A stretch of DNA of 64,000 nucleotides from a virus (IMGVR_UViG_3300010270_000394:36982-100981), one strand, 5' to 3'; positions 2,583-53,737 are shown, counted from the stretch's first letter. The notes: generated by a model from the sequence alone, not told the origin. A program made the numbers and translations.

Positions 2583-2611
2583 AATATCCTCCATTATTGT
2601 ATTTCTTGTTA

Positions 2612-2683
2612 TGGCGGCAGATGCCGGAATCGAACCGGCGTTTCCGTGTGAACCACAGCGTATTACCACTATACGAATCCACC
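2612..2683 (-). tRNA. Atypical tRNA-like RNA (Glu-like TTC, shortened anticodon arm)
   Basis: Acceptor GGTGGAT/ATCTGCC+GCCA, D arm GTAT-AGTGGTA-ATAC, T loop TTCGATT; anticodon stem CTGTG/CACGG closes only 5 nt (GTTCA). Confidence 0.65.
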
Positions 2684-2685
2684 GT

Positions 2686-2940
2686 AGAGGCTGCCGGATA
2701 TTGCAATTCTCCAACAGCATACCCTTGTCTGCCGTCGAAAGTGTTTATGGCTGTACGGGCGCATAAACAGCATTTCAACGTACTTCCTGCACTTGGGATG
2801 GCAAGGACTCCCTCGATACTCTTCATAGACCGAAAACACTTATCCGCGATATAAGACTCACGCGATAACGCTGCTAAAACTCTCACAGCTTTGAAGGATT
2901 TTTCCATTGTGCAGATGGCGGCGTTCACTCTGCCGTGCTA
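2686..2940 (-). ncRNA. Candidate structured ncRNA (about 255 nt)
   Basis: Region inside the tRNA cluster with several hairpins (GCAGA/TCTGC, TTATCGCG/CGCGGATAA, GTTTATG/CATAAAC, GCTGTTGGA/TCCGGCAGC) and no convincing ORF. Confidence 0.4.
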
Positions 2941-3088
2941 TGGATAACAGCTCGACGATGTATCCGGAAGGAGGTGAGACACATGGATTCGTCAAGAGAA
3001 AGGAGAACAAGATGTCAGAACAAGAGAAGAACCGTCTGATCTTTTTTGATGATTTGTCGCTCGGCAAAGCGATTCGAGCTGCTATCCA
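2941..3088 (-). ncRNA. Candidate anti-Shine-Dalgarno sRNA
   Basis: 15-bp closing stem (3088-3074 with 2955-2941); internal loops UCACCUCCUUC and UUCUCCUUUCUC; begins 1 nt after the tRNA-Lys CCA. Confidence 0.55.
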
Positions 3089-3089
3089 G

Positions 3090-3165
3090 TGGTGCGTCAG
3101 GAGAGGATCGAACTCTCGACTTACAGATTAAAGGTCTGTTACTCTGCCAACTGAGTTACTGACGC
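3090..3165 (-). tRNA. tRNA-Lys(TTT) with C33
   Basis: Full 76-nt cloverleaf, anticodon loop CCTTTAA, encoded CCA. Confidence 0.9.
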
Positions 3166-3171
3166 ATATAG

Positions 3172-3245
3172 AACAGAAGGCAAGAATCGAACTCGCGCAT
3201 AGCAAGCCGTTTATGCTTGCCGTGTTACCACTTCACCACTTCTGT
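3172..3245 (-). tRNA. Atypical tRNA-like RNA (extended anticodon arm, no CCA)
   Basis: Acceptor ACAGAAG/CTTCTGT, D loop AAGTGGTAA, T loop TTCGATT; anticodon stem GCAAGC/GCTTGC with loop ATAAACG. Confidence 0.6.
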
Positions 3246-3249
3246 TCTT

Positions 3250-3340
3250 TGGCGCAAGAGGCAGGATTTGAACCTACAACGGAGTTGATCAGACTCCACC
3301 GCTCACTTCGCGGCGCGTTTAACCATTTCGCCACTCTTGC
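3250..3340 (-). tRNA. Atypical type II (Ser-like) tRNA with non-canonical anticodon loop
   Basis: Acceptor GCAAGAG/CTCTTGC+GCCA, long variable arm GGAGT/ACTCC, T loop TTCAAAT; anticodon loop GAAGTGA lacks U33. Confidence 0.7.
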
Positions 3341-4208: not shown

Positions 4209-4282
4209 AGCGAATCCTTTCTTGTAAATGTTGTTATGTTGTCTTTAGGAATGCCGGTCATCACCGGCTCTTTTCACTTGAC

Positions 4283-4311
4283 ATTATACTTGTAATTCTT
4301 GTTATTGTCAA
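4283..4311 (-). promoter_or_regulatory. Consensus sigmaA promoter whose spacer is the 17-bp motif
   Basis: TTGACA-ataacaagaattacaag-TATAAT on the minus strand. Confidence 0.9.
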
Positions 4312-5092: not shown

Positions 5093-5122
5093 TTTTCCAT
5101 AGTCTCCTTCTTGTAATTATTG

Positions 5123-5983
5123 TTATTCAAGTCCAATGAGACGATTAATATACTCCGGCTGTTGATGAAAAATCGGAATATCATAATCAATTACCCACTT
5201 GTTGCGAGTGAGAACGTTTTCTCCATCGGTCTGTGCAACTCCATTATGGACAATCGGCATTGGCTTTTTGATGCAGCATACGCCGCGCTTGCTCCGCGTT
5301 GTATAGTTGTTCCAGTTGATTCCCTTCTCCACGAAAAGCATTTCCTGAATATCGTTACAGGATTTTCCATGAAGCTGCTTGTGAGAGAAATTTGCCTGAC
5401 CGACCATCTGAATACTGTTGCGCGTTGCGTCCTGTTGCCGCCATTCCAGCACATTCATCACGTCATCGCACGGAACGTTAAATACGCGGGAATCAAACAA
5501 CGCTCCGCGATCCAACGCTTTATTGTAAGCGACGCATATACATTCCTCTACTGCAAACGTGTTTTCCGGATAATCCATTTTCATATCAAGAATACGTTCG
5601 TTATGTGACGCAACACATTTTGCAAACGCACGATTGAATGCCAAAGTCGCCATCGACGCGGAAATACTGGTAATTTTTTCCACATTATAGTCAAACCACG
5701 CATCCGAGGTCAAAGTCTGATAGTCGATCAGAACAAGCGTGATCTCGTCAGACTGTGTATAGCCGAGGACGCAGCCCTGAATGTTCTCGCAGAGATATTT
5801 CATCGTATCTTCCATCGCGTTCATCAAAACAAAATCAAACGGTTTTTGAAAACCGCGCGTGAACGTGTGAAACGCCTTGCCGTCCAGACGGATAATCACC
5901 GGTACGCGGCGCGTCAGGAACACCTTCGGCACTGCTTCATAGGTTTTCATCCGATCTCCAAGACTGTCGTGCTTATTGCTCAT
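5123..5983 (-). CDS. tRNA(His) guanylyltransferase Thg1-like protein (3'-5' polymerase)
   Basis: DRMKTYE, IIRLDGKAFHTFT, YTQSDEI, FDSR and WRQQDATRNSI motifs. Confidence 0.93.
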   Translation of the reverse strand: MSNKHDSLGDRMKTYEAVPKVFLTRRVPVIIRLDGKAFHTFTRGFQKPFDFVLMNAMEDTMKYLCENIQGCVLGYTQSDEITLVLIDYQTLTSDAWFDYNVEKITSISASMATLAFNRAFAKCVASHNERILDMKMDYPENTFAVEECICVAYNKALDRGALFDSRVFNVPCDDVMNVLEWRQQDATRNSIQMVGQANFSHKQLHGKSCNDIQEMLFVEKGINWNNYTTRSKRGVCCIKKPMPIVHNGVAQTDGENVLTRNKWVIDYDIPIFHQQPEYINRLIGLE

Positions 5984-6215: not shown

Positions 6216-6407
6216 GGTTATTCCCTCACAGCGAAGCGATATACAAATTAGCAACTTGTTTCATAGTCAAATCCTGAAAAAGCCCATCGTCTTTTGCCGC
6301 TCTCGCAAGTCCAAGAATGAACCCATACAGCAAATATAGTTTTTCGTTATCTGTCACATTCAATCACTTCCTTGTAATTATACTTATTGGAGTAAAAAAC
6401 ACTACTC

Positions 6408-11619: not shown

Positions 11620-11648
11620 ATTATACTTGTATTTGTTGTTATTGTCAA
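11620..11648 (-). promoter_or_regulatory. Consensus sigmaA promoter whose spacer is the 17-bp motif
   Basis: TTGACA-ataacaacaaatacaag-TATAAT on the minus strand. Confidence 0.9.
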
Positions 11649-16154: not shown

Positions 16155-17225
16155 TCAATCGACCGCTGCCGGATTCTCCATGTTCTCAAGCTGTATCTGT
16201 TCCGCTTCGTCCTCGCCGGATTCTTCCGCATCATCCGCGCCGTCATCCGGCGTTTCCTCCGCAAGCTGGCGCATGATCCTCTGGCGCGTCTGGACGGCGT
16301 TCGGCTTCGCGCTGCCAATCGTTACGCTTGTGTTGTAGTCCTCGTTCGTGGACGGTTCACCGGAAAAGAACGTTTCCAGAATGTCCTTGATCTCGTCGCG
16401 CGTCTTGCCGTTGTTCAATGCCTCATAGATGAAATAGGCGCAAGAGACAAAATGCGTTCTCGTCGTGATTTTCTTGATCATCTTCTTGTCCGTCATTTCT
16501 CCGACAATCATCTTGAACGCCAAAAGCGCCGTTTCCAAATCGTCCATAACGCGCTGATCCACCGTGACTTCATTCGCCCATTCGCGGAAAGACTTTGTAG
16601 AGAAGTCCGGCTTTTCCTCCGTTGCCATGTGGTAAAGCTGCATTGCAATGACTTCATCCATAAAGCGCTTCTTTGCCGATTCCGTGACGGCGTTCTGGAT
16701 CGCATCGTGCTTTGCAAGGTTCTGGAATTTTCCGATCTCCGGCGTATTCACGCGCGTCAACTCAATGCTCGAAAGCGGCTTGCCGTTGTTCAAGCGCCGG
16801 AAAAACTCTCTCACTTCCGATTCCGTCATATCCTCGTAATAGTAGATAGTCAGGTTGTAGTCCTTGATCCGATCCTTCGCCCAATCCGGCAACTGTTCAT
16901 AGTACAAACCGGTGAAATTATTGCGGTTTCCGTCATCGTCGTAAACGTCCGGAATATCCAGCGAAAGCGCAAACTTTCCGCTCATGTACTCCATGATCGC
17001 GTTGCAACGCTGCTTGCCGTCCAGACTGTCATAAATGCCGTTCTCGTCTCGCGTGAAGTACATTGCCGGAATTGCGTAACCGTACATCATGGAATGGATC
17101 AAAAGACTTTTCCGCGAAACGTCCCAAGTATAGCCGCGCTGTACGGCGTTATCAAAGTTCAGTTTCCCCTTCGTCATCTGATTGATCAACGCCTTCGCCG
17201 TCCAGTTAATATTAAATCTCTGCAT
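16155..17225 (-). CDS. Second DUF262 domain protein
   Basis: VQRGYTW, LDGKQR and FFRRLNNGKPL motifs; start MQRFNINW after AAAGGAG. Confidence 0.85.
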   Translation of the reverse strand: MQRFNINWTAKALINQMTKGKLNFDNAVQRGYTWDVSRKSLLIHSMMYGYAIPAMYFTRDENGIYDSLDGKQRCNAIMEYMSGKFALSLDIPDVYDDDGNRNNFTGLYYEQLPDWAKDRIKDYNLTIYYYEDMTESEVREFFRRLNNGKPLSSIELTRVNTPEIGKFQNLAKHDAIQNAVTESAKKRFMDEVIAMQLYHMATEEKPDFSTKSFREWANEVTVDQRVMDDLETALLAFKMIVGEMTDKKMIKKITTRTHFVSCAYFIYEALNNGKTRDEIKDILETFFSGEPSTNEDYNTSVTIGSAKPNAVQTRQRIMRQLAEETPDDGADDAEESGEDEAEQIQLENMENPAAVD

Positions 17226-17277
17226 TGTAATTTCTCCTTTTCGTTGTAATTGTTGTTGTGGTTTCCTGATTCTTCCG

Positions 17278-18217
17278 TTACGCTGCCGGCAATGCCGCAA
17301 AGAGCGGTTCTCCGGTTTTCCGATCCTGCAACTCGTAAATATCGCCGTCAAACACAACCTTGCATTTGCCGCGCTTGCAACTGATCCCAAGGCGCTTTAA
17401 TGCGTTCAGAAACGCGCGTTTGTGATTCTCCGATCCGGTCTTAAAATCTCCGATATGATACGATTCATTCCACGTCCAGCCTTCTTCGCTGTTCCATGCG
17501 TCGATCTGTCTGATCTCATACTTGAATTTATCCATTGTTTCAATGCTCCTTCCATTATTTCATCCGGTTTTTAACAAATGCAATTCTCGTGAAACTCTCG
17601 CAAGAGTCCATAGCGCCGTCCGATCCGCTCAAAGTAGGATTGCCAATCCGCTAATTCTTCGTAACTGTAATTGTGGTTTTCAAAATCAGCTTGCCAATCA
17701 ATAGCCTTCTGTCGCGCGGTTTCCTTGTGCCGCTGATAGTTGCTCATTTTTCCATGCCATCCTTCCTGAATAAATCGCTAAACGATTCCGCTTTCAATGC
17801 CTCTTGCGCGTCCTCCGTCATTTCGATATATTCCTTGATATAGTACATACAACTTTCAAAGTTTGCGAATTCTTCCAAAGTTGAGTCCACAAAACCGGTA
17901 TAACCTTTAATCCGGAAACAAACTTCAAACGGATTCTTTTTTCGCTTATGACATTTCACAATGATCTTGAATTTTCCAAAATCCAGCATTGCAACCGTTT
18001 TCATGCTCCGTCATTCTCCCTTCATGCTTTCGCAAATCTTTGTGTTTAGGCGCTGCAATTCTCCGATATAGTCTCTGATCGCGTCAATAGACTTCCGATC
18101 CGCAATCAGCTTTTGCGCCTGATAGCAACCTTCCAGCGCCTTCAAAATGCAATCGCTCATAAGATGCTTTTCATGCTCCGAAAACACAACCATTTTTCCA
18201 TACTTCCTTTCGCTCAT
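17278..18217 (-). other. Four small hypothetical genes (17278-17535, 17571-17747, 17744-18004, 18011-18217)
   Basis: Packed ORFs with RBSs; 17571-17747 (58 aa) is below the track cutoff and was translated by hand. Confidence 0.65.
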
Positions 18218-18963
18218 GCCGTCCGGTAACTGTAAATTGTCTGCGTTGATACGTTGTCGATCATTTCAAGCTGCGTTTCCTCCGGTTCGATTCCAGCCCA
18301 TTCACAAACGATCCTTTTATAATCGTCATCGTTCCGCGCTTCCGAATCCGCTACAATATATCCATAGCAACGATCTGTTTCCGTATATGTTGCTTCTTCG
18401 TCCTCGTCCTCCGGCGCTGCGTAATTCTCAATATCAATCACGCAAAATTCTTTCGCGCAACCTAACCACACTTCGCCGTACTGCTTTACGCCGTCTCTGT
18501 AATGCTCCGGACAATAAACCATTTCTACATAATCGCCTTGACAATAACCGCTTGCGCTGTCTGCTTTCCAGATAACGCCGGTTTTGATCGTCAGGAATTC
18601 CGCAATATCGTCTGTATGGTTTACGTCCGCATTCTTTGACCATTCCTTCAGCAAATGGCACTTGCGGCTATTATAGGGAATTCCGGCTTCCGTCATAACG
18701 TCTTTATAACCGATCCGTTTTCCGTCATAGTCCACGATCCCTTCCGCAACATCCGCGAATCCGTCAAGAATCGTTTCCGCTTGTCTCTGGATCGCTTTGT
18801 ACGTTTCAATATTAAAGCCGCTGATTCTTCCCCAACCGTCATTTGAAATAATGAAAAGGTTGTTGTTCCAATCTCCGCTTGCTTCCGTCAAGCCGTCATT
18901 GTCAAAATAAAATTCAAAGTCGCATTGATCCGGCGCAATCTCTCTAATGATATGGTTGATCAT
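18214..18963 (-). CDS. Acidic hypothetical early protein
   Basis: 249-aa ORF with AAGGAG RBS. Confidence 0.75.
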   Translation of the reverse strand: MINHIIREIAPDQCDFEFYFDNDGLTEASGDWNNNLFIISNDGWGRISGFNIETYKAIQRQAETILDGFADVAEGIVDYDGKRIGYKDVMTEAGIPYNSRKCHLLKEWSKNADVNHTDDIAEFLTIKTGVIWKADSASGYCQGDYVEMVYCPEHYRDGVKQYGEVWLGCAKEFCVIDIENYAAPEDEDEEATYTETDRCYGYIVADSEARNDDDYKRIVCEWAGIEPEETQLEMIDNVSTQTIYSYRTA

Positions 18964-18980
18964 TTTTCTGTTCTCCTTCC

Positions 18981-21900
18981 TTAACCGTAAAATTTCCAGA
19001 CTTCAAAACAAGCCGTTATTTCATCAATGACCGGATCAAGAATGCCGTCCGGCGCTTTGTGGTAACGCTTCATCCATGCTGCATAATCCGCGCAACGGTC
19101 AAGCGGCAATTCCGGCGTTTGTCCGTTCCTGATTCTTTCGCATGAACGCTTGATTTGTGCAAGCCGCTTTTCCGTTGTCATTGGTTGCCGCTCCTTCCTC
19201 TATGCGCCGTTTCGCGCCGTCTGTACTGCGTTTTTGAACGCTGTATAATTTTCGTCCGTTTCATCTGCTATGCGTTCTTCCGCTGCGTCAATCTCTGCAA
19301 GGATCGCTTTTGAAAGTCTCTTGCAACGTCTGATTGTTTGTCCGCTTGTCCATGAGTTGATATATACTTCGCGGATCACAAAGTTATAATGTGTTTCGTC
19401 CGGCGCAATCAATACGCAATCGCCATTGCCTAATGTGCCTTCCGCAAGCTGCTTTAACTCATATCCAGCTTGCAAACATTCATTGATCAATTCTGTCGTT
19501 CCGGCAATATCATAAATATTTGTAACGCGCCGTTTTCCGCTCAACATTTCCTTAACTGTACTTTCATATCGTTGATCAATTACTTTAATCTTTGCCATTT
19601 GTCGCGCCGTCCTTCCTCTGTTTTGTAATTGTTGTTATGTCCGTTTTGATCCTCTGTTGTGCCGCTGCTGATACACTAGCACAATATAACAACAATTACA
19701 AGTAGCTTTCGCAAATTTCTGTATTCGCCGTTTTGATGTTTTTTCCAGAATGGATTATTATTTGTAATTGTTGTTATGCGTCGAAAACTTCCAGCGCCAA
19801 AACAGACAAGCCCAACAAAAGCAAGTTGACGCAAGCCCAAATAATAGCCGTCCAGAATTCCGCGCCGGTTGTACTCTGTTCGGCTGCGCCTATATTGCCG
19901 ATCATCAGGACGAAAAACAAAGGGATCATATATCCGGCAATCGTCCGCGCCGTTTTTAAAAGTTTCATGTTGTGCCGTCCTTCCTATATCATAGCAATTA
20001 GGGAAAATTCCAGCTTGCTAATTGTTCTATATTTCGGATCGCGCCAATTTGCCAAATCTACGCGCCATTGTTTCAGAATTCCGCAAAGGATCACAACGAC
20101 TTCCGCAAGCTGCAATACGCCGTTTTCTATGTCCTCTAAATATAGGTTATATTCGCCGTTTGGATCATTGCGCTGCATGAATGCAAGCGCCTTCTGTAAT
20201 GTCTGTTTGTCCTGATTTGTCATTATCCGCGCCTCTTTTCTAGTCAATTTTCCGGCGCTTTGCCGTCCGTCCAGCGTTCAAAATGCTTGTTGTGCTGCAC
20301 AACCGCGCCATAAAGAAAACCGGCGCAATAATCCGCATTTTCGCAAAACTGAATATAACTTGATGTGAATTCTTCCGGCTTTACGTCCGGATCACGAAAA
20401 ATCAAAATTGCGCCGTCTTGCGTCTTATAAAACGCCGGATCAAAAAAGTTTGCCTTGAATGCGTCAAGATACTTTTCAATTCTTGCCGCTTCCGTTGCCG
20501 TAAATTTGCGGCTATCGTTCATAACGATCATTTATAAAACCGTCCTTCCGTCATTTTTTCAGAATGCCGCACAACCGCATTTTTCGCGCCGTCAAGCGCT
20601 TGATTTGCCGCGCCGGTATTCTGTACGCCGTCAAGCTGCAAGCCGTCCAGCGCGGCAAATTACGCCGTTCTTATGCGGTCAAATCGTCAACTTCTCTAAA
20701 GCCGTTCTTTTCTAACTGTTTCCGCAATTCGTCATAGTCGCGGCTTTTAATTTCGATCCCTTCCGTTATCATGTGTGGATCAAGTCTTGTATACGTCCGG
20801 TTGTCCGTATCGACTGCAATATATTTTCTATTTCCGTTGACGTTTCGCGCCGTCTTAAACTGCATAATCATAAAATCAACCTTCCTTCCATTCATCAAGA
20901 AATTGTTTTGTAATATCCGTTTCTTTGTATCCGTTGTTATGCGCTGCAAGCGCAATTATTTTTGATACTGTATAGCCATTTTTCCGCGCCGTTTTCATGC
21001 CGCGCAACGCAAGCGCGTTTAATTCGATTGCATGAAATAGCAACTTTTCCGCGCCGTCTTTCATTCCGTAGACTTTCGCAAGGTTGTATTGTCCGCGAAC
21101 GTTTAACAATTTTTCCATGCTGCAACCGTCCTTCCGTCAAGCTACGCCGTCTTTCCGGATCGCGTCAAGCAACTTTTCAACTTCCGATTTGACCGGATCA
21201 AGAACGGAATAATCACAACCGTATTTTGCAAGGTACTTTTTCAGTTGTTCGGAAGTCGCGCGATATTCCGCGCCGTATTCGTTTTCAAGCGCCGTATTTG
21301 CAAAATCAAGAAAAGCATTCCAAATAATAGCATTCAAAGAACGGCGCTTATAATTTGCGGCAATATCGCGCAAAATGGACTTTTTGCCGCTTCCGCGATT
21401 ATGCCTATATACAATATCAAACTGCATATAAATTTGATCGTTCAAATAGTCCGCATTCAACTTCATGTTTCCAGTATTCAAAAAGTAGCTATCCAGCGCG
21501 TTAAAAGTGTAATTCTGATTAGTCATTGCAATATGCCTTCCCTTCTTAAATATAGCCGTATTTCATCCAGCGCCGCGCAAGTTTCCGCGCGTCTTTGATC
21601 GTATCAGCGCCGCAAATTTGCACATATGCGCCGTAAAAATCGTTATAGTATAACAAGCTATACTTTGCGTTAAAACCGTTGCGCGGCTTGAGATTAAGCG
21701 CGAATTTTACGCCGTCAATTGTGAATTCTCTACTACTCATTTTTACGCCGTCCTTCCGTCCATTGCGAAACGTGCGCCAAAACTGAAATAAACGTTTTTC
21801 TTGCTAATTTCAACCGGATCAAGATATTTCAGGTTTAACCGCTGCACTTCGACTTCGCGCAATGTGTATAACTCATTTGCTATATAAATATCGCCGTTGT

Positions 21901-23237
21901 GAATTTTTAGATTTTTATATTTATTGTCCGCTTCAGGTTTAACGCGATAATATAACATTTTTAACGCCGTCCTTCCCTTTACATTTTGTTTCAAGCTGCT
22001 ATTCTGTTTTGCCGTTGTTTTGCGGTTTATCCGGCGCGGCTTGCTATCATTTCCGGCGCTATTGTACCGGCGTAACAAGCCGCGCGGATCACGTCTTGAT
22101 CAAGCTGCATTTTCGCCGGTAACTTCGGCAATAAACGCGCGGATCAATGCGGACAACTCTTCTTTTGCTTCCGTCCAGCTTGTTTTATTTTCAAGAATCT
22201 TTTCCGCGCGTTTATCGTATTTCTTGCACGTTTCATAATCCGGCTTGATATTGCCAATAGGCGCATAACCGGTACAAATGGCAACATTGTCAAAAGCGTA
22301 AACGTCATATTTCCAGCCTTCAACGCGCGTATTATACGCAACCGCTTCTTCACATTTCAAAAGAAACTGCAAGTTTGCATATCCTACTTTGATAATCTTG
22401 TTATATCCGGCGCGGATCGCTTTATCAGTCGTTTTATATTTCATTGTTTTATACCTTCCTTTTCAAATATTTGTAATTGTGGTTATGTTGCGCGGTTAAT
22501 CGGTTGTATCAACTTCGCCGGTTATCATCATTGTTTTAATTCCGGTTAATTCATTTTGCAAGTAGCGGATCGCATAACGTTCTAATTGATCAAGCTCTTT
22601 TTTAGTGTATTGCTTGAAATTGTACGCCGCGCGGCAATAATCTTTTATATAACTATAATCATAAGAGAATAAAAACCGGTTGACGTTCTCTTCGCAATAC
22701 TCATAAACTTTTTTAATTTCTTGCGACTTTGCAAAATGTTCGTTTTTGTGGTTAACGGTTGCGTTGATCGCTTTTGTTTGCCGGATCGCTTCATTAACGG
22801 CGCTGCTGCTATAAATTGCGCGTTCAATTTGCATTTTGTTTCACCTTCCTTTAGTGGTATTTTGTCAAGTCAAGTATTTGATTTTTCAGGAATTTTCTAA
22901 AAACCGTGATACAATCTTCCGGATAAAAATTTTCTTGCGTAAAGTAGTAGCTTGTTATGATCGAAAGAATACTATTATAAATTGCCGGTGGAATTGCGGC
23001 TTGCTTGCTTGCGTCTTTCTTCATTGTTTCAAGTGCCGTTTGATAGCTGATTAAAACTTCGCCGTTTTGCGGATTATCGACCTCAATAAAATTTTCGTTG
23101 CCGTAACTAATACCATGTTCAACGCCTTGATCATCATTCACAATATAGCCGATATTTTCGGGGATATAATCAATTATTGCGTATTTCTTGCCTTTTGTGA
23201 AATAGTCGGAATTTTCGATTGCTACTAAATACTTCAT
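18981..23237 (-). other. Array of about 13 small early genes (e.g. 19200-19598, 20244-20531, 21137-21526, 22100-22444, 22496-22834, 22851-23237)
   Basis: Packed ORFs, many preceded by GGAAGGACGG; downstream of the promoters at 23401-23429 and 19673-19701. Confidence 0.7.
19673..19701 (-). promoter_or_regulatory. Early sigmaA-type promoter overlapped by the 17-bp motif
   Basis: TTGTAA-17 bp-TAGTGT with extended TG; near-identical to 23401-23429. Confidence 0.65.
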
Positions 23238-23400
23238 TGCGCTGCACCTTCCTTTACTTGTTTTTGTTGTTATGGAATAGCGCTTTTTTGCTAGAAAAAA
23301 CGCTTTAGAAAAAACTGTTATCACGGCGAAGGACTGATAACTACCCGTTGTTGTACTATACGCGCCAACAACCGCGCGCCGTTGTTTTGTTGTTACTGAT

Positions 23401-23429
23401 ACACTAGCACAACATAACAAGAATTACAA
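23401..23429 (-). promoter_or_regulatory. Early sigmaA-type promoter at the head of the left arm, overlapped by the 17-bp motif
   Basis: TTGTAA-17 bp-TAGTGT with extended TG. Confidence 0.65.
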
Positions 23430-24197: not shown

Positions 24198-24226
24198 TTG
24201 ACAGCGCGAAAAAATTTTGTTATAAT
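24198..24226 (+). promoter_or_regulatory. Consensus sigmaA promoter of the right arm
   Basis: TTGACA-17 bp-TATAAT with extended TG, flanked by motif copies at 24175 and 24285. Confidence 0.9.
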
Positions 24227-24321
24227 GAGCATAGCGAAAATACCTGTGGAGTGGTTCTTTTTGTTGATTTCGCTGCCGTCGTTTATAACAAGAATTACAA
24301 CTTACTATGGAGGTAAGCACG

Positions 24322-25155: not shown

Positions 25156-25166
25156 GGAGGGCGAAT

Positions 25167-30074: not shown

Positions 30075-30144
30075 TTTTGCATCATCATAAGTCGAATTAC
30101 AAGTAAAAGGAGGAATTCTATGACAGATAGGAGAAGATGCTTAT

Positions 30145-32606: not shown

Positions 32607-33045
32607 AACAGTGGACGGCGACGTGCTGTGCGCGAAGGAAACTTACATTGTGCATCAAGTGAATTGCAGCGGCGTTATGGGAAGAGGGCTGGCGCTTTCG
32701 ATCCGGAATAAATATCCTGACGTATATCGCCGGTATCAGCAGTATTGCGACGAGCATCGGGCGAAATATCTGCTTGGGCGTGTGCTTCTGATTCCAACGG
32801 ACGACGGCAAGGTGATCTGCAACGTGTTCGGACAGAACGGATACGGCACATCTTCCCAGCAGACAGATTACGCGGCACTGAGTAAGGCGTTGACGAGTCT
32901 TGAAAAGATCGTGCCGGAGCGCGAGGCGATTGCCATGCCCTATCAGATTGGATGTGGTCTTGGCGGCGGTAACTGGATGTATGTCGAGCGAATGATCCGA
33001 GATATTTTCAAACGGCATGATGTAGTTCTGTATCAATATAAGTAG
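32599..33045 (+). CDS. Macro domain protein (Poa1p/DarG-like ADP-ribose hydrolase)
   Basis: IVHQVNCSGVMGRGLA...IAMPYQIGCGLGGGNW. Confidence 0.88.
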   Translation: MIKTVDGDVLCAKETYIVHQVNCSGVMGRGLALSIRNKYPDVYRRYQQYCDEHRAKYLLGRVLLIPTDDGKVICNVFGQNGYGTSSQQTDYAALSKALTSLEKIVPEREAIAMPYQIGCGLGGGNWMYVERMIRDIFKRHDVVLYQYK

Positions 33046-33065
33046 AATTACAAGTAGGTGATAAT

Positions 33066-33473: not shown

Positions 33474-36413
33474 ATGCTTGAAAACGGCGTTCGTATTCCG
33501 TCGCTGGACGGAAAAGATATTTACATATCGAACCATTGTATCAAGCAGAAGGTCAACGAAAAGGGATTCCCTGTTGGTTTTCGGTTGAGAAATCAGAACG
33601 GTGATTTGAACTTGAGCCGTTTTATCAATACACTGGATTACAGTCTTGATTTGATCAAGATGAAAGACGTGTATGAAAGCGTTTATCGCCGCAGGGATTT
33701 TACGTTCAATAAAAACGGCAAAGAATATACGCAACGTGTGATCAATGTGACGTTCAAGTACAGCGTAAAGGAATTCAATCATGTGCATGGAAACCAGTAC
33801 GTCAAGTATGGATACACGATTGAAGATTTGCGTTTTGTGGATCATATTGCCATGATTGACGGTGAAGTTGTCGGCGTTGAGGTTGGGCTTCCGGTGGAGA
33901 ATCCAGTTCCAAATGATGTGCTTGGGCGATGTTTCTATTATAACGATGGGATGTATCATGCCAAACATAATATTCCGTCACGAAACAGCGTTGCAAATAT
34001 CCGTGAGGAAATTTACACCAAAGGATTCTATTGTGATGGAATCAAGTACATCCGGTTTAAGCGGAGCGCCGGTTCGAGCCGCGTCGGTAAGTGCCTGTTC
34101 ATTGACGAAAAGCTCTATAAACAGATGCACAAATGGGAAATGTGCGGAATCAAGGTGCGAAAGGGACAGAACATTGATCTTGCCGCACTTGAACCGTATA
34201 TTGCATTGACGTTGAGCAGTATCATCGGTACATTGGAGTTAAATAAAGAAAATATTTTAGTAGTTAAGGACTACAATAGTATTTTCAAGGATTACGCGGT
34301 GGCAACGCGGTTTGTTGATGGGCGGCTGGTATCCAAGCCTGAAGAAGTGGAAATCTGTAATACGATTTGGGATGGTCAATCGCTTATGGATCGCGGCGTA
34401 TTTCAAGATTTTCAAAAATGGCAGCAACAGACCAATCCGCAGGCGCGTGAACATGGTATGCTTCTTCTGCGCGGACGGTTTTTTAAGTCATGTTGTTTCA
34501 ATGCGAATATTCAGCAATGGTTCAAGGATAATGGGATCACCGATGTTTCGCAACTTAACGGCGAGACGATGGCGACACGCATTGAGGATATTAAGCTCAT
34601 TACAACAAAAAAATCAATCAAGTATGTGAAATTTGGAACAATTCAGCAGTGGTTGGAGCAGCTTGAACCGATGTTTGGCGTGGTGAAATATGAGAAACCG
34701 ACGCATTTCTTTGAAGGTAGGATGGTGCAGACGCATTATCAGCTCTTAAATACGCTTCAGATGACATATGACGAGGTTGCGGAATTGGTAAAACCGTCTC
34801 TTGATTATGCGCAGATGATCAAGACCGATCCTGCGGCGCTGCGTCATCAGATTGGTTATCAGTTTCAATCGCCAAATGATGAATTCTTTAATAAGGCTGT
34901 TACGACAAAGAATGATATTATTTACAAAATGCTTGGCATTTCAGATAAATTTGCAGATACAAAAATGTATCAGCAGTTTCGAGACGATTTGATCAAGTCA
35001 TTTGTAAAAAATTTGCGGTGCGGTCATATTCTTGTTCGTGGGAATTACAGTACGCTTTGCGGCAATCCGATTGAAATGCTCAAAGAGGCAATCGGAGCAT
35101 TTGACGGAACTTCTATCATTGAAAAGAACACTGTTCATAGTCAAAATTTTGAAGATGGAAAAGAGCTGCTTGGTTCTCGTAGTCCCCATGTGACGATGGG
35201 AAACGTCCTTGTTACGCGAAATGTATTGCGAGACGAGATCACGCGGTATATGAATTCCACCAATGAGATTGTCTATATCAACAGCATTAAGGACAATATT
35301 TTGGAGCGTCTTTCCGGCGCTGACTTTGACAGCGATACGATGATGCTGACGGACAATGAAATTTTGGTACGGGCGGCAAAGCGGAACTATGACCACTTCC
35401 CTGTTCCGACTAAGTTGGTTGAGGCAGCGGAACGGCAACGGAAATATACGGACGAGGAAAAGGCTGATCTTGACATCAAGACAAGCGTGAACAAAATCGG
35501 TGAGATTATCAATCTTTCGCAAGAACTCAATTCGATTCTTTGGGATCGTCTATATCATGGCGAAAGCATTGAGAACGTCATGGATTTGTATTGCGATATT
35601 GCGCAGCTTGACGTTATGAGCAATCTGGAAATTGACAGTGCCAAGCGCGAGAATCCGGCGAACAATACGTTCGAGCTGATGTGTCTCAAGAAAAAGTACG
35701 ACGTGCGGGATAAAAAGAATCGCCATGTGCGTCCGCTGTTTTTCAAGTATATTGACGGGTATAAAGGGTATCGTGACAGATATTATATTTACGCGGAAGA
35801 AGATAACGAATTTATCAAGCAAGGAGATACAGACAGTTTTAAAGAAGCACTTGAAATGAAACGATCCAAGGAAAATGTTCATGTGGAACGCGGCAGAATG
35901 TCATATGAGAAGCATGAGACAAGCATGGATTATCTGGAACTTTGTATTAACAAGTTCAGGGCAAGAAGAATGGAAAAGAAAAAACTGCTGACATTCTCGG
36001 ATTGTTTGGTGTCGGCAGACGAATTATCTGGACAAGTTTGGTATCCTCAAATTACAAAGATTATTGAGTGTGTCAGAGATTACAAATTGAAATCAAGTCA
36101 AATTTGGAACGCAAGTCCGGAACTGACGAATAGAAAGAAACGAGAACTTGCTTATGCAGAGTATCAAGAATGCGTAGCGTATATTTCTTCTTTGATGTTG
36201 GGTGAGAAAACAATGCGTCATTTGTTGACGCTGATAGATAAAAAAGAGTATTCAGACGTATCAAGATTTTTGTTCTCGGTTTTATTCATGACCGCGAATA
36301 ACGATTTTTACAAGTTAATAGCACAGAGCAAAACGCCAATTGAATTGTTAAAAGAGGATGAAAACGGAGAAGTTCGGATTTATGATTTCTCTTATATAAG
36401 AGAAATGTGTTAG
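33474..36413 (+). CDS. YonO-like single-subunit RNA polymerase (double-psi-barrel, cellular-RdRP-related)
   Basis: RSPH and LSGADFDSD metal-binding motif; position ahead of the HU/phosphoesterase/terminase block as in SPbeta. Confidence 0.8.
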   Translation: MLENGVRIPSLDGKDIYISNHCIKQKVNEKGFPVGFRLRNQNGDLNLSRFINTLDYSLDLIKMKDVYESVYRRRDFTFNKNGKEYTQRVINVTFKYSVKEFNHVHGNQYVKYGYTIEDLRFVDHIAMIDGEVVGVEVGLPVENPVPNDVLGRCFYYNDGMYHAKHNIPSRNSVANIREEIYTKGFYCDGIKYIRFKRSAGSSRVGKCLFIDEKLYKQMHKWEMCGIKVRKGQNIDLAALEPYIALTLSSIIGTLELNKENILVVKDYNSIFKDYAVATRFVDGRLVSKPEEVEICNTIWDGQSLMDRGVFQDFQKWQQQTNPQAREHGMLLLRGRFFKSCCFNANIQQWFKDNGITDVSQLNGETMATRIEDIKLITTKKSIKYVKFGTIQQWLEQLEPMFGVVKYEKPTHFFEGRMVQTHYQLLNTLQMTYDEVAELVKPSLDYAQMIKTDPAALRHQIGYQFQSPNDEFFNKAVTTKNDIIYKMLGISDKFADTKMYQQFRDDLIKSFVKNLRCGHILVRGNYSTLCGNPIEMLKEAIGAFDGTSIIEKNTVHSQNFEDGKELLGSRSPHVTMGNVLVTRNVLRDEITRYMNSTNEIVYINSIKDNILERLSGADFDSDTMMLTDNEILVRAAKRNYDHFPVPTKLVEAAERQRKYTDEEKADLDIKTSVNKIGEIINLSQELNSILWDRLYHGESIENVMDLYCDIAQLDVMSNLEIDSAKRENPANNTFELMCLKKKYDVRDKKNRHVRPLFFKYIDGYKGYRDRYYIYAEEDNEFIKQGDTDSFKEALEMKRSKENVHVERGRMSYEKHETSMDYLELCINKFRARRMEKKKLLTFSDCLVSADELSGQVWYPQITKIIECVRDYKLKSSQIWNASPELTNRKKRELAYAEYQECVAYISSLMLGEKTMRHLLTLIDKKEYSDVSRFLFSVLFMTANNDFYKLIAQSKTPIELLKEDENGEVRIYDFSYIREMC

Positions 36414-36461
36414 TTCATTTTCGCAATTTTGGGGTGTTTTTGCAAGAAAACAGTCATTTAG

Positions 36462-36497
36462 AAAGCCCTGAAAGCGTCCTGTTTTCAGGGCTTTTTC
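36462..36497 (+). terminator. Hairpin/terminator after the RNA polymerase gene
   Basis: AAAGCCCTGAAA...TTTCAGGGCTTTTT. Confidence 0.55.
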
Positions 36498-36603
36498 ATG
36501 TATCAAGAAAAAAGTGATAAGGGTAAGAGTATCGTTTTCGCGCGGGTGTGCGTGAATAATATGATGTCGAAATCCCAAAATCTATTGTAAAGGACTGAAG
36601 AAT

Positions 36604-36819
36604 TTGATTCCGATTACGAAAGCTGAGTCGCAGAAAATTCGCAAGGTGTATCCCGATGCTGGGATCACGCGGACGTGCGTTCAGAAAACCAAGCGCCATC
36701 ACTATTATCTGACGGAATATGAACCGTATCTGCGTATGATTGTTGATACAAACGAGTCTGCGTCAGAGATTTGTAGCCGTATTGACAAAAATCGCAACAG
36801 ACGCAGAAATCGAAATTAA
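36604..36819 (+). CDS. Small basic hypothetical protein
   Basis: AAGGA RBS, TTG start. Confidence 0.65.
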   Translation: MIPITKAESQKIRKVYPDAGITRTCVQKTKRHHYYLTEYEPYLRMIVDTNESASEICSRIDKNRNRRRNRN

Positions 36820-36833
36820 CGGAGGAACACGGG

Positions 36834-37478
36834 ATGGATAAAAAAGAAAAAGGCTTTTATGACATTGATTGGGATTACGACGAGAAGCAATTTCTGAAAA
36901 CTTGGGGGGTTGAGGAACTTTTTAATCTGCGTAATTTGCAACAGCGCAAATTGTTCCTTACCGACGACATTGATGAATATGTTATTGACAACATCGTTTG
37001 CCATATTATGCAGTATAACGCCGACGACAAGGGAATTCCCGTGGAGCAGCGCAAGCCGATTCTGCTGTATGTTTCTTCCAATGGCGGCAGTGTTGATCCG
37101 GGCTTTGTTCTGATTGATGTGATCCAGCAGAGTAAGACACCTGTTTACACAATCAATCTTGGGTATCAGTACAGCATGGGATTCTTGATCGGTCTTGCCG
37201 GTCACAAGCGTTACGCAACGAAAACAGCAAAGTTTCTGATGCACGACGGGACGAATTTTATCATCAATTCCGGCACGAAAGCACAGGATCAGATGGAATT
37301 TAATCGCCGTGTGGAACAGCGCGTCAAGGAATACATACTCTCGCGCAGCAAGATCAGTTCTGAGGAATATGACAGCAAATTGCGCGTTGAGTGGTATCTA
37401 TTTGCTGACGAGGCAAAAGAAAAGGGATTTTGTGACTATATCATCGGAGAGGATTGCACACTCGACGATATTGTGTAA
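36834..37478 (+). CDS. clpP: ClpP-like protease
   Basis: YVSSNGGSV, YSMG (catalytic Ser) and FLMHD (His). Confidence 0.85.
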   Translation: MDKKEKGFYDIDWDYDEKQFLKTWGVEELFNLRNLQQRKLFLTDDIDEYVIDNIVCHIMQYNADDKGIPVEQRKPILLYVSSNGGSVDPGFVLIDVIQQSKTPVYTINLGYQYSMGFLIGLAGHKRYATKTAKFLMHDGTNFIINSGTKAQDQMEFNRRVEQRVKEYILSRSKISSEEYDSKLRVEWYLFADEAKEKGFCDYIIGEDCTLDDIV

Positions 37479-38204: not shown

Positions 38205-38238
38205 TATAACAACAATTACAAGAAAGGACAATAATACT

Positions 38239-39990: not shown

Positions 39991-40066
39991 TGCGGAGTGG
40001 AGCAGATGGCAGCTCGTCAGGTTCATGCCCTGAAGGTCAGTGGTTCAAGTCCACTCTCCGCAACCA
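39991..40066 (+). tRNA. tRNA-Met(CAT), initiator-like
   Basis: Cloverleaf, loop TTCATGC, fMet-like D arm, CCA. Confidence 0.85.
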
Positions 40067-40157
40067 AGGATAGCGGGTACAGTTTGCGGACTGTACGGAG
40101 GATGAAAACCACCTCCCGTCGTTCCTACCGGCAGAAGTCGAAAGACAGTAGGAATTT

Positions 40158-40243
40158 GCTGGTGTGATGGAATGGCAGACATGGCAGATTCAAAATCTGT
40201 TGGCGGCAACGTCGTGAGAGTTCAAGTCTCTCCACCAGCACCA
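40158..40243 (+). tRNA. tRNA-Leu(CAA)
   Basis: Loop TTCAAAA, long variable arm, CCA. Confidence 0.92.
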
Positions 40244-40246
40244 TAC

Positions 40247-40320
40247 AGCGGTGTGGTCTAATGGCAGGACACGAGACTTTGACTCTCGCATTGTTGGTTC
40301 GATCCCAACCGCCGCCGCCA
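40247..40320 (+). tRNA. tRNA-Gln(TTG)
   Basis: Loop CTTTGAC, T loop TTCGATC, CCA. Confidence 0.9.
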
Positions 40321-40392
40321 AACATTGTCCCTTGCGGACGCTTGAAAATGACAATGAAAGGCGCTTCTTCGGAAGCGTCTTTCGCTATATAT

Positions 40393-40468
40393 GGTCTGTT
40401 AGCTCAGTTGGTAGAGCAATCGGCTGTTAACCGATGTGTCGTAGGTTCGAGTCCTACACAGACCGCCA
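40393..40468 (+). tRNA. tRNA-Asn(GTT)
   Basis: Loop CTGTTAA, CCA. Confidence 0.93.
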
Positions 40469-41606: not shown

Positions 41607-41609
41607 CGG

Positions 41610-50408: not shown

Positions 50409-51136
50409 TGGTGCAAAAGCCAAGTATGCTCTGCCATACGGATTATCCGATCAATGACAGGATTTCCGTGCATATTCCGAGTGTTCAGGAAATCTATGAC
50501 TTTGGGGAGCAGAAGTATTACAGCATTGTCCAATCGCTGACCGCGACACCATACGATTTGATGGTAGAATTGGACGATATAGGGATAGATTTTGAAACGA
50601 TCAATGAGTATCAGTTGTTTATTCTGATGTTTGGTTCGATTGCCGCGCGAGAAAAAGACACGTCGATTTTGTTTGGAAATTTGGATTTGACAAGTTTTTG
50701 TGAAATGGAAAACATACAAACGGGAGAACGGGTTTTACGCGACGAGGAAAACAACATCACGATTGACCGCTTGCTTGCGATGGAAATTTGCCAAGCGATT
50801 CGCAAGATGCACTTTTGGACTGCTCCGGAAGCGCACATGGGGAATTTGGAGGCAAAGAAATACATCATTGAGCGGACGCGAATCAAGAAAAAGCGCAGGG
50901 CAAAAATGCCGTATCAATCGCTTTTGGATAATATGATCATCAAATTGGTCAATACAAGCGAATTTCCCTATAATTATGAATCTGTTTTGCAGTTGAGTAT
51001 CTATAAGCTCAACGCGAGTTGGCATCAGATTCCAAAGATGAAGCAATGGGAGCAGACCATGAACGGAGTATATTTCGGGACGGTTGATTCTTCCAAGCTC
51101 GATCTGCAAAAACTCAGTTGGATGTCGCCGGATTAA
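50408..51136 (+). CDS. Hypothetical tail-module protein
   Basis: Coupled ORF. Confidence 0.6.
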   Translation: MVQKPSMLCHTDYPINDRISVHIPSVQEIYDFGEQKYYSIVQSLTATPYDLMVELDDIGIDFETINEYQLFILMFGSIAAREKDTSILFGNLDLTSFCEMENIQTGERVLRDEENNITIDRLLAMEICQAIRKMHFWTAPEAHMGNLEAKKYIIERTRIKKKRRAKMPYQSLLDNMIIKLVNTSEFPYNYESVLQLSIYKLNASWHQIPKMKQWEQTMNGVYFGTVDSSKLDLQKLSWMSPD

Positions 51137-51241
51137 ATTGCGGAAACGCGATTGATTTGCGGCGATTTCTTTTCGGGTATGTCCCGATTCTTTTATAAAA
51201 AGCGTGACAACGCTGAAAAAACAAAAAAGGAGGACTGTGAT

Positions 51242-52042
51242 ATGTCTGTTAATGTGAACGATCTGTCGATCACCAGCCTTGAGACGATCATGGCTTTCGG
51301 CATCAATGGCGGCGCGTATCGTTTTACGCTCGACGAGCTTCAGAACGCGACGATTTCCAACTCTCAGGACAACACTGCTTTGACCGGTAAGGGTGGTCGT
51401 ACCATCGGTCAGCTCAAGCGCAACAAGAGCGTTACCGTGTCTGGTACGAACGGCATGGTTTCTGTTGGTCTTGTTGAGGCTGAGGTTGGCAGCGCCGGTG
51501 AGCATCAGAGCGCCGCGAAGGTCAAGTACATGGATTATCTGACCGTCAACAGCAACAAGGCGACGACTTCTTATAAGGCTGTCGGTACTGTCGGCAATGA
51601 GATTGGCGAGGTGCTTGTCAAGAACAGCGACGGCACGATCAAGGAGCGTCTTACGCAGAACGCAACTGCCGCAGAGGGCAAGTTTGCCTATGATCCCGCT
51701 ACGAAGGAGCTGACGTTTAACACCGGCGATCTTGCCGACAAGACCGAGATCGTGGTTTATTACACCCGTGAGGTTGAGGGCGATGTCGTCAGCAACATTT
51801 CGGATAAGTATTCCGAGACGCTTGAGCTGTATGTTGACGCGATTGCGGAGGACAAGTGCCACAATCAGTATCACGTTCAGTTCTATATCCCGTATGCCGA
51901 CTTCACCGGTTCGTTCGATCTGGCGATGGGCGACACGCAGACCACGCACGGCTTTGAGGCGACTTCCCTTGCTTCCGCTTGCGGCAATGGCGGCACGAAG
52001 TTCTGGGATATGACGGTGTTTGGCGAAGAGACTGCCGCCTAA
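51242..52042 (+). CDS. Major tail (tube) protein
   Basis: Thr/Gly-rich, biased codons, AGGAGG RBS; synteny. Confidence 0.65.
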   Translation: MSVNVNDLSITSLETIMAFGINGGAYRFTLDELQNATISNSQDNTALTGKGGRTIGQLKRNKSVTVSGTNGMVSVGLVEAEVGSAGEHQSAAKVKYMDYLTVNSNKATTSYKAVGTVGNEIGEVLVKNSDGTIKERLTQNATAAEGKFAYDPATKELTFNTGDLADKTEIVVYYTREVEGDVVSNISDKYSETLELYVDAIAEDKCHNQYHVQFYIPYADFTGSFDLAMGDTQTTHGFEATSLASACGNGGTKFWDMTVFGEETAA

Positions 52043-52064
52043 TCTAATTACGAGGTGATTTGAT

Positions 52065-52406
52065 ATGGCAACGCAAGCTGTTCCGTGCCGCGTTTGCGGG
52101 AAGGCTTTTGTCCCCTGCAACAAGCCGAGCAGCGCGTTAGGCGCTTTCAATTACCGTGCTGTCGCTTGCTCTCCTGAGTGTGGCGCTGAATATCTGCGCC
52201 GCGTTCAGGAGGCGCGAGGGCAAACCGTTTCCTCTCCCGCCCCCGATGCAGCGGTGTCTACGGGCGCGGAGGAAACGGCAGTCGCGGAAAACGCGGTTGC
52301 CGTTCCCGTCGTAGAGGAACAGGAGGACGAACCGATTTTTACGGAGCGTTTGAGCCGTAAACAGCGCAAAGCGATGAAGCACGGGGCTGACGCGGACAAT
52401 ATGTGA
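52065..52406 (+). CDS. Small Zn-finger hypothetical protein
   Basis: CRVCG...CSPEC. Confidence 0.6.
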   Translation: MATQAVPCRVCGKAFVPCNKPSSALGAFNYRAVACSPECGAEYLRRVQEARGQTVSSPAPDAAVSTGAEETAVAENAVAVPVVEEQEDEPIFTERLSRKQRKAMKHGADADNM

Positions 52407-52456
52407 GATACGGGGAGGGTTCGCCCTCCCCTTTTCACAGACTTTGGAGGTATTGC

Positions 52457-53062
52457 TTGGGAACTACATTACATTTGGTTTCAGATATTCCACCGTCTGT
52501 TAATCATTATTTGGCATATCGAGCTGTTTTGAAAAACGGAAAGCCTATCGGAACAAGTTATAAAACGCCGGAGGCTGTACGGTATCAGGAACGGTTCAGA
52601 CATTATGTGTGGAATGAGGTTCGTAAACAGGGCTGGAAGCTCAAGCCGAATAAAGAACAGCATTTTTATGTGGATGGATATTTCTATTTTCCTCGCGTGG
52701 ATATGGATTGCAACAACTACTGGAAGTGTTTGCTTGATGCAATAACAGATACTAAAAAAATTTGGCTGGATGACAATGTTGTTTGCGAACGCGCTCAGAG
52801 AATTTATTATGATCCGGAGCATCCAAGAGTGGAACTCAATATTTATCCGGTTGACTACATAGGTATTTTTGACGACTTACCTCAGTTGGAGCAGTTTGAA
52901 GCTCACTGCATCGGTTGTAACAGATACAAGCGAAATTGTAGTCTTTTGGAAAATGCAAAGGCTGGAAAAATTCAGAAAGAAATTGAACAATGCCAATGCA
53001 AGGCATATAAACAAATTGCCACAAAAGGCAAATCTAAAAAACAAGGAGAATTGAAACAATGA
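52457..53062 (+). CDS. rusA: RusA-like Holliday junction resolvase
   Basis: PPSVNHY, DCNNYWKCLLDAI and DDNVV motifs. Confidence 0.8.
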   Translation: MGTTLHLVSDIPPSVNHYLAYRAVLKNGKPIGTSYKTPEAVRYQERFRHYVWNEVRKQGWKLKPNKEQHFYVDGYFYFPRVDMDCNNYWKCLLDAITDTKKIWLDDNVVCERAQRIYYDPEHPRVELNIYPVDYIGIFDDLPQLEQFEAHCIGCNRYKRNCSLLENAKAGKIQKEIEQCQCKAYKQIATKGKSKKQGELKQ

Positions 53063-53706
53063 GTTTGATTGATAAGAACGCGATTTCCCGCATTATGGAA
53101 GTTGCTGATGATCTGAAAGTTGATGGGATCACATATACGCTTTCTAATCCGAAGAATAAGGATGAAGTGGTTGCGGTAGTCAACATCAAGGTTGAACTGA
53201 CCGTTGATGAAAAGGCGGCGTTTGTGGATCGTGTGGTCAATGGTGTATTTGACAGCGACGGAGATTATATGCCTTGGCTGTTTGATCCTCTGTTTATGAT
53301 CACGTTGATTCAGATGACGACCAATGTTCCGGTTTTCAAGCGCAAAATCATAAATGAGGAAACCGGCGAGAAAATTAACGTGGTTGATGTTGAAAAGACT
53401 TATGCGCTGGCAAAGGCGATGAATCTGCGCGGTGTAAATAATGGCGCGTATCAAAATCTTATGAATGAGCTGCAAGGTCTGATCGCGGATAAACTCGAAT
53501 ATCGCAAGCGTATGAATATGAGTCAGGAGCGTCAGATGCTTTCCAAGGCGCGTGAGGAATTGGAAACCGGTGTTGCAATGGTCAGCGCGGTTGCCGATAA
53601 ACTCAATGGAACGCTTGCCAATATGGGTAATATTTCTGATCTTGCGGATGCGGTCAAGAGCGTTGATTACGACGCATTGAGCCGTTCTGTGCTTGCTCAA
53701 GCATAA
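53059..53706 (+). CDS. Hypothetical protein (possible tail chaperone)
   Basis: Synteny; AAGGAG RBS. Confidence 0.55.
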   Translation: MSLIDKNAISRIMEVADDLKVDGITYTLSNPKNKDEVVAVVNIKVELTVDEKAAFVDRVVNGVFDSDGDYMPWLFDPLFMITLIQMTTNVPVFKRKIINEETGEKINVVDVEKTYALAKAMNLRGVNNGAYQNLMNELQGLIADKLEYRKRMNMSQERQMLSKAREELETGVAMVSAVADKLNGTLANMGNISDLADAVKSVDYDALSRSVLAQA

Positions 53707-53737
53707 GTATAATTACAAGGTTATTTTTGATAATAGC

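Follow-up and report, generated by a model that had tools for sequence, protein, structure and literature searches.

What kind of regulatory system is served by a non-palindromic motif that recurs, mostly in the direction of transcription, at the gene junctions of a large phage genome is the question raised by the stretch of viral DNA analyzed here (IMGVR_UViG_3300010270_000394:36982-100981; 64,000 nucleotides, referred to as the window). The window comprises bases 36982-100981 of an IMG/VR provirus record (100,981 bp, 79% complete), and positions given below are window positions unless they are marked as record positions. The motif is quite probably the operator box of a phage-encoded repressor of the MrpR/SroF family, for which a 307-aa protein encoded outside the window is the candidate.

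The window contains 15 exact matches to ATAASNNNAATTACAA, whereas dinucleotide shuffles predict 0.01, and 33 matches with up to two mismatches (4.1 predicted); in the full record the motif occurred exactly 26 times and its backwards control not at all. An iterated matrix scan of the record recovered 42 sites with scores of at least 18, 23 of them within the window, and these were separated by a clear gap from the next matches (<15). Information is spread over about 19-21 bp, (a/c)ATAA(C/G)(A/T)A-N-AATTACAA(G/A)(t/g/a)A, in which position 17 is a purine; two sub-types occur (ATAACAA and ATAAGTA), and the density is approximately one box per 2.4 kb. Although the called open reading frames (ORFs) cover about 91% of the record, 32 of the 42 sites overlap an ORF by at most 8 nt, the start codon typically lies 5-42 nt 3' of the box, and at eight sites the TAA of the motif doubles as the stop codon of the upstream gene. 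Transcription runs leftward up to about 23.2 kb and rightward from about 24.3 kb, and outside the switch that lies between these two arms 36 of 40 sites are co-oriented with local transcription (28/32 in the left arm and 8/8 in the right arm). An earlier note on the window had described about 21 copies, almost all at gene junctions, most of them following the local direction of transcription, often overlapping a stop codon and absent from the structural block, all of which was confirmed here, the intergenic placement across the whole record; stop-codon overlaps at 5111, 19762, 33038 and 53703 are joined by four beyond the window, and no site was found by the matrix scan between 38.3 and 53.7 kb. 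The copy number, asymmetry and strictly intergenic location of the motif spoke against an interpretation as Chi/KOPS-like, parS-like or nut-like sites, and these were rejected.

The sites fall into two classes. Across the record, eight strong intergenic sigma-A promoters touch a box: in three perfect TTGACA-17-TATAAT promoters (window 4283, window 11620 and record 10319) the box is exactly the 17-bp spacer, in one (record 36158) it covers the -10/+1 region, and in four (window 24175, window 53703, record 35760 and record 30186) it lies 5-24 nt upstream of the -35 element. The first two spacer promoters had already been pointed out in the earlier note, and the three are not simple duplicates, because their flanks differ. 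About 30 boxes have neither a -35 nor a -10 element in the correct register and occupy, in sense orientation, the space that separates a stop codon from the following Shine-Dalgarno sequence (SD). The boxes and boxed promoters of the window are as follows (G002, G003 and G004 are related phages introduced below; RNAP, RNA polymerase).

2597-2612, minus strand: box abutting the 3' end of a tRNA-Glu gene without a gap, 5' of an SD
4222-4237, minus strand: leader box lying 68 bp downstream of the promoter box (4290) and 13 nt 5' of the start of a 259-aa gene
4283-4311, minus strand: perfect sigma-A promoter TTGACA-17-TATAAT, its spacer being the box 4290-4305
5111-5126, minus strand: junction box whose TAA terminates the upstream gene
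6372-6387, minus strand: junction box 5' of an SD
11620-11648, minus strand: perfect sigma-A promoter, its 17-bp spacer being the box 11627-11642
17244-17259, minus strand: junction box 5' of the SD of a 356-aa gene; the orthologous junction in G002 is also boxed
19623-19777, mixed strands: three-box module with a box at 19762 (minus), a reversed box at 19686 (plus) over a leftward promoter-like site TTGTAA-N17-TAGTGT, and a box at 19623 (minus) before an SD
20925-20940, minus strand: weak match inside a gene (score 19), which may be non-functional
22471-22486, minus strand: junction box; the orthologous junction is boxed in G002, G003 and G004
23258-23505, mixed strands: switch module with a box at 23490 (minus), a reversed box at 23414 (plus) and a box at 23258 (minus) 20 nt before the first leftward gene
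24175-24300, plus strand: upstream layout of the recombinase gene, namely box 24175, 7 nt, a perfect TTGACA-17-TATAAT promoter (24198-24226), leader, box 24285 and SD
26517-26532, plus strand: box in the last codons of an N6-methylase gene, 31 nt before the next start
30087-30102, plus strand: junction box, its position kept in G002, G003 and G004
33038-33053, plus strand: junction box overlapping a TAG stop codon, upstream of a small ORF and the RNAP gene
36298-36313, plus strand: weak, doubtful match inside the RNAP gene (score 20.5)
38206-38221, plus strand: box filling the stop-to-SD gap at the head of the 15-kb structural operon; G002, G003 and G004 have phage-specific boxes at the same place
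53703-53766, plus strand: box 53703-53718 (its TAA a stop codon), 19 nt and promoter TTGACT-17-TATAAT (53738-53766), heading the second late block

The module at 19623-19777 is homologous to the switch module at 23258-23505 and to modules in the relatives. Both reversed boxes (19686 and 23414) lie in a conserved leftward TTGTAA-N17-TAGTGT arrangement flanked by a forward site on the upstream side and another within the leader; at the switch, the complement of the reversed box supplies the TTGTAA -35 hexamer (23424-23429), which is accompanied by a TAGTGT -10 (23401-23406). The overlap of these two copies with -35 boxes, as claimed in the earlier note, holds in that the box supplies a -35-like hexamer, the promoters themselves being predicted.

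Similar site classes are known from the Bacillus phage SPbeta, in which MrpR binds a dispersed repeat, SPBRE, as demonstrated by chromatin affinity purification sequencing (ChAP-seq, ten peaks) and electrophoretic mobility shift assays (PMC10516654). SPBRE was re-derived here from NC_001884 at the ten genes with MrpR ChAP-seq peaks, which gave a core AATATGTATA with ACAAATACAAA on its left and 14 exact core matches in that genome. The repeat is the spacer of TAGACA-N17-TATAAT-like promoters at yonP, yorE, yorM, yorZ and yosX and stands directly before the SD at yonX, yopM and yopV, so that SPbeta shows the same two site classes, promoter spacer and pre-SD, as the phage examined here. The related repressor SroF of phage phi3T binds as a monomer, wrapping almost completely around an asymmetric box of 26 bp, of which it reads 24 bp, and has many genomic sites (bioRxiv 10.1101/2025.11.27.690993); such a mode of binding would explain a long non-palindromic motif.

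The candidate repressor gene lies to the left of the window.

Record G000:C1:34788-35708, minus strand: gene of the 307-aa MrpR/SroF-like protein, 1,273-2,193 bp left of the window start

The 307-aa protein stood out in the orthologue comparison as one of the fastest-diverging shared proteins. An ESM Atlas search linked it, at a score of 0.99, to clusters with PF22822 (MrpR_N_CB) in 70-78% of their members, and its AlphaFold2 model (predicted local distance difference test score 88) found MrpR, YopR and SroF as the top six Foldseek matches in the PDB (E-values 7.5e-9 to 2e-7), with lambda Int, Xer and Cre ranking below; the matches include 8A0A (MrpR), 8BPZ and 8BJ6 (YopR), 9RD5 (phi3T SroF-DNA, template modeling score 0.61) and 9RGL (SroF-Sar). 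A profile built from the protein and seven close homologues collected 533 relatives, PF22822 being present in 16 of 41 sampled, and the profile of these 41 sequences aligned with SPbeta MrpR end to end in hhalign (93.9% probability, E-value 1.6e-7, 275 columns). An hhalign comparison from four sequences only was weak, and a word-based homologue search returned five matches. In an alignment of four orthologues judged by eye, the position presumed to correspond to the first catalytic Arg reads K/E/D/D (WLGIK, WFGIE, WLGID), and R212 as well as the C-terminal Y298 are retained. According to these profile and model comparisons, the phage encodes an integrase-fold protein of the MrpR/SroF family outside the window, as the earlier note had envisaged in proposing an SPBRE/MrpR analogy with an MrpR-like gene there. 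In 4/4 phages, the promoter of this gene consists of a slightly off-consensus box of the phage's own type, 5-8 nt and TTGACA-17-TATTAT/TATCAT, suggesting autoregulation, and another box follows the stop codon and a hairpin of the gene.

An exact-motif scan of IMG/VR returned 76 contigs with one match each, which is the chance level and yielded no relatives, megablast of the switch region against phage records gave no match, and a mismatch-tolerant 12-mer finder was too noisy for use; a repeated motif, AGAGAATATATAA, in relatives reached through the RNAP at about 45% identity proved to be just ribosome-binding-site context. The syntenic clade was retrieved with an alignment of the window recombinase and its G001 homologue, and consists of G002 (133,491 bp, complete, with direct terminal repeats), G003 (124 kb), G004 (69 kb) and G001 (95.6 kb). 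All of them have the polymerase, the recombinase and the XRE-ImmA gene pair, and the MrpR-like gene is present in all but the incomplete G001 contig. The box of the phage examined here reads ATAAC-AAS-AATTACAA-G, that of G002 ATAAC-MAN-AAATACAA-T (36 sites), that of G003 and G004 ATAACG(G/A)NNTAWTCAA-T (22 and 24 sites) and that of G001 ATAAMTACAAAAACAAGTT (three sites, all at the switch, in the 74% of the genome on hand), the ends ATAA(C) and CAA being constant across phages and the middle variable. Each phage has three to four consensus-like sigma-A promoters (TTGACA/TTGATA, 17 bp, TATAAT/TATACT) with its own box as spacer. Orthologous junctions, including the head of the structural operon, are boxed in 17/20 (G002), 13/19 (G003) and 12/13 (G004) testable cases, and the upstream layout of the recombinase gene (box, TTGAC(A/T)-17-TATAAT, leader, SD) recurs at 12 loci, where the boxes are invariably of the local type and the second leader box is usually present too.

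The box type follows the divergence of the MrpR-like protein and not that of the phage RNAP. The MrpR-like proteins of G002 and G004, which have different boxes, are 48% identical and those of G003 and G004, with the same box, 79%; for the polymerases the order is inverted (90% between G002 and G004, 67% between G003 and G004), and the RNAP of the phage examined here is 74% identical to that of G003 versus 67% to that of G002, though its box is nearly that of G002. Since the flanking genes of G002 and G004 are only 72-80% identical, the polymerase gene has seemingly been exchanged between box types, an exchange which would be fatal if 20-40 promoters depended on the polymerase. These comparisons bear on the proposal that the motif is the promoter of the YonO-like single-chain RNAP encoded by the phage (33474-36413, plus strand, phrog_8308), with starts at the position-17 purine and short SD-bearing leaders in the manner of a T7-type set. 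The density, directionality, position-17 purine, location 5' of SDs and presence at the late-operon head would suit such promoters, and constant ends with a variable middle are also the pattern seen among T7, T3 and SP6. The likeness to these promoter sets and to P_YonO extends to the size (about 17-19 bp), directionality, placement before genes and density of the motifs; however, the boxes here are embedded in host promoters, being exact spacers of consensus sigma-A promoters throughout the clade, which is an operator design with a precedent in SPbeta, and the box type is not linked to the polymerase. In SPbeta, YonO initiates from a single site, upstream of yonK (PMC5467207), and the dispersed repeat is assigned to MrpR (PMC10516654). 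G001 has a polymerase 66-67% identical, yet only its three cognate boxes at the switch in the 74% of its genome on hand. The independence of box type from the polymerase argues against the polymerase-promoter proposal, which is improbable and was retained as a small chance because a box heads the late operon.

A separate, single-copy element located as follows may represent the real target of the polymerase.

36510-36529, plus strand: conserved element just 3' of the RNAP terminator, single-copy per genome, in 5/5 phages

It reads AAAAGTGAT(A/T)AGGGTAA in the phage examined here and G003, and TAA(G/A)TG(T/G)GCAGAAGGGATA in G002, G004 and G001, so that its two versions group like the polymerase clades. 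Placed like P_YonO of SPbeta, it is a candidate for the RNAP promoter, and only as a lead, because linkage alone could explain the grouping.

It is about equally improbable that the boxes, while still regulatory, are bound by another phage protein, such as the 277-aa recombinase, the XRE protein, a 247-aa protein or an unannotated small protein. The recombinase (24322-25155, plus strand), a tyrosine recombinase that comprises little beyond the catalytic domain and was suggested as a binder in the earlier note, has a gene flanked by two boxes in all relatives and a variable N-terminal region of about 55 aa; on the other hand, none of its R/K/HxxR/H/Y residues is lost, and its identity of 66-72% between phages of all box types shows no pattern by type. 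As an MrpR-like binder it was rejected, given no sequence match in the PDB, no BLAST similarity to YopR/YopP and its intact catalytic residues, and it is more plausibly a regulated target, a binder role being unlikely. A single-sequence search for its relatives found none and an alignment-based search succeeded; relatives of about 30% identity occur mid-genome in Streptococcus and Bacillus phages, in the latter beside ArpU-type regulators. The XRE protein, the other binder put forward in the earlier note, is the only helix-turn-helix protein found among about 55 proteins scanned. Its own promoters are free of the motif, and it is 75-78% identical across different boxes.

The 247-aa protein is encoded next to the MrpR-like gene.

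Record 36235-36975, minus strand: gene of the 247-aa protein, the first of the XRE-controlled leftward operon

This protein co-diverges with the MrpR-like protein (43-44% versus 76% identity), but has no match to a DNA-binding fold, and searches of PHROGs, the ESM Atlas and Foldseek gave no usable match. Because its divergence pattern matches that of the MrpR-like protein, it is perhaps a specific partner of the repressor; given that its gene heads the leftward operon under XRE control, an antirepressor role is a guess. Also in favor of another binder, the first two leftward genes at the switch have no detectable homologues in the relatives. Among all these proteins, the 307-aa protein alone belongs to a family known for binding exactly such sites.

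A function of the motif in RNA, as an unstructured CAA-rich leader element 5' of the SD (a translational operator or enhancer, or a processing site), is very improbable. About 30 sense-strand copies do end 5-42 nt before a start codon, but that distance varies over the whole range, reversed copies exist, the three spacer copies and the four upstream of a -35 element are not transcribed from the promoters concerned, and the relatives alter the box sequence in concert with a DNA-binding repressor.

Binding and repression by the MrpR/SroF-like protein are what we infer from the motif statistics, the positions, the repressor family and the co-variation. In the prophage, this integrase-fold protein, presumably catalytically degenerate, would occupy about 42 boxes and shut eight strong sigma-A promoters by occlusion (three through the spacer, one over -10/+1 and four from upstream of -35), and it would regulate itself through the box at its own promoter. 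The repressor-box interpretation accounts for the boxes embedded in spacers, the layout suggestive of autoregulation, the co-variation and the precedent within the family, and the claim of the earlier note that one phage protein acts by promoter occlusion is well supported, if circumstantially, by boxes in or against sigma-A promoters as in SPbeta. Several observations weigh on the other side. Searched directly against Pfam and NCBIfam, the 307-aa protein showed no MrpR domain, so that membership in the family comes from fold, profile and transitive evidence; the conserved core of 17-21 bp is shorter than the 26-bp phi3T box; and the co-variation is seen across only four genomes and three box types, with the neighboring 247-aa protein diverging in the same pattern. 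Moreover, the boxes without a sigma-A promoter, about 30 of the 42, go beyond what has been described for SPbeta and are not obviously required by a repressor alone, and one box stands at the start of the structural operon, a place for which a promoter would likewise be expected and no other one can be seen.

For the promoter-less boxes, a role as roadblocks to transcription has a chance approaching even. Such boxes, in sense orientation, sit inside long terminator-poor operons, and in each of the phages compared (the one examined here, G002, G003 and G004) promoter boxes are paired with another box that lies 62-72 bp farther downstream, directly ahead of the SD; on this basis the promoter-less boxes may provide a second lock, halting transcripts that escape from upstream. 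Co-directional intrinsic terminators are few, too few for a terminator-then-motif logic to discriminate, and this line of reasoning was abandoned.

A comparable layout is known from the stoperators of mycobacteriophages. The L5 binder is a helix-turn-helix protein that recognizes 13-bp sites. For gp71 and the stoperators of L5, a cluster A mycobacteriophage, Brown et al. reportedly showed polar blockage in 1997. Like L5, the phage examined here has dozens of asymmetric sites that occupy short gaps between genes and for the most part share one orientation relative to transcription, and a single repressor would act at promoters and within transcription units, as in L5; it differs in that the candidate is an integrase-fold clamp with sites of at least 17 bp, and polar blockage is putative here. 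With MrpR/SroF the system shares the two site classes, an integrase-fold repressor homologous at the profile and fold level, a long non-palindromic box dispersed over a phage of more than 100 kb with a YonO-type polymerase, and a boxed repressor promoter. Differences include hosts of the Clostridia type instead of Bacillus, an identity to MrpR/SroF of just 11-16% in structural and profile alignments, 42 boxes against ten MrpR-bound ones in SPbeta (about fourfold), most of them promoter-less here, and a module that adjoins an XRE-ImmA pair and a MazF-like gene. The MrpR/SroF system is inactivated by Sar, a small DNA-mimicking antirepressor controlled by LexA, and includes an arbitrium module; neither arbitrium genes nor a Sar homologue were seen here, no search aimed at them having been made. 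Judged by these features, the system belongs to the MrpR/SroF box systems and resembles L5 stoperators in layout only. A more far-reaching proposal, somewhat less probable than its opposite, is that integrase-fold monomers clamp about 30 promoter-less junctions directionally and stop elongation, which would make them stoperators that arose independently of those in mycobacteriophages, with at least 12 orthologous boxes rewritten in step with the repressor. If this is true, the rewritten box networks of different immunity types would be a natural recognition-code series for the integrase fold.

Descriptions of MrpR/SroF repressors date, to our knowledge, from 2023-2025 and are confined to SPbeta-like Bacillus phages. 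A distant relative with its full set of boxes can now be placed in 100-135 kb phages of gut and rumen Clostridia, and most likely MrpR-type silencing also exists, in a denser form, outside Bacillus phages. The four sequenced relatives, with three box types at the same genomic positions, are ready data for studies of DNA reading and immunity-type switching, and the system offers a clean test of a DNA-encircling monomer as a transcription roadblock. As a caution, a dense directional motif in a phage with a YonO-type polymerase need not be the promoter of that polymerase.

The remaining features of the region concern the surroundings of the repressor gene and of the switch. Next to the left end of the window lies the gene pair mentioned above.

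162-524 and 521-1222, plus strand: XRE-family repressor and ImmA/IrrE-like M78 peptidase genes, with face-to-face sigma-A promoters at 28 (plus) and 93 (minus), both box-free

This pair is a separate induction module of the lysogeny type rather than the box binder, and is probably a damage-sensing layer upstream of the MrpR-like repressor. A gene for a toxin-like protein is situated between those of the 247-aa and MrpR-like proteins.

Record 35776-36126, minus strand: MazF/PemK-like toxin gene (Pfam E-value 6.6e-34), its promoter sandwiched between one reversed and one forward box

In phi3T, MazF is linked to lysis-lysogeny control. The switch region consists of about 1.1 kb of non-coding DNA and holds, at 23540-23860, three copies of GC-rich repeats resembling TTATGATCCGCGC(C/G)G and containing GATC, which may be origin iterons or methylation-sensitive sites. 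The left arm encodes replication and nucleotide-metabolism functions (NrdD, NAD-dependent ligase, DnaB-like helicase, Pnkp-like RNA ligase, methylases and serine hydroxymethyltransferase), and the right arm a UvrD helicase, the YonO-like polymerase and structural genes. Sequencing runs matched to 17000-26900 comprised only small DNA shares in animal-gut metagenomes and no RNA run, and a G002-like relative resides in a scaffold titled 'Clostridiaceae bacterium strain 9'. G002 itself is a useful reference genome for the clade; its physical ends lie about 16.8 kb from the recombinase start, on the side of the RNAP and late genes and, by synteny, near the terminase genes. Two tRNA clusters of four genes each are also present in the window, one in each arm.

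2612-3340, minus strand: tRNA cluster
39991-40468, plus strand: tRNA cluster

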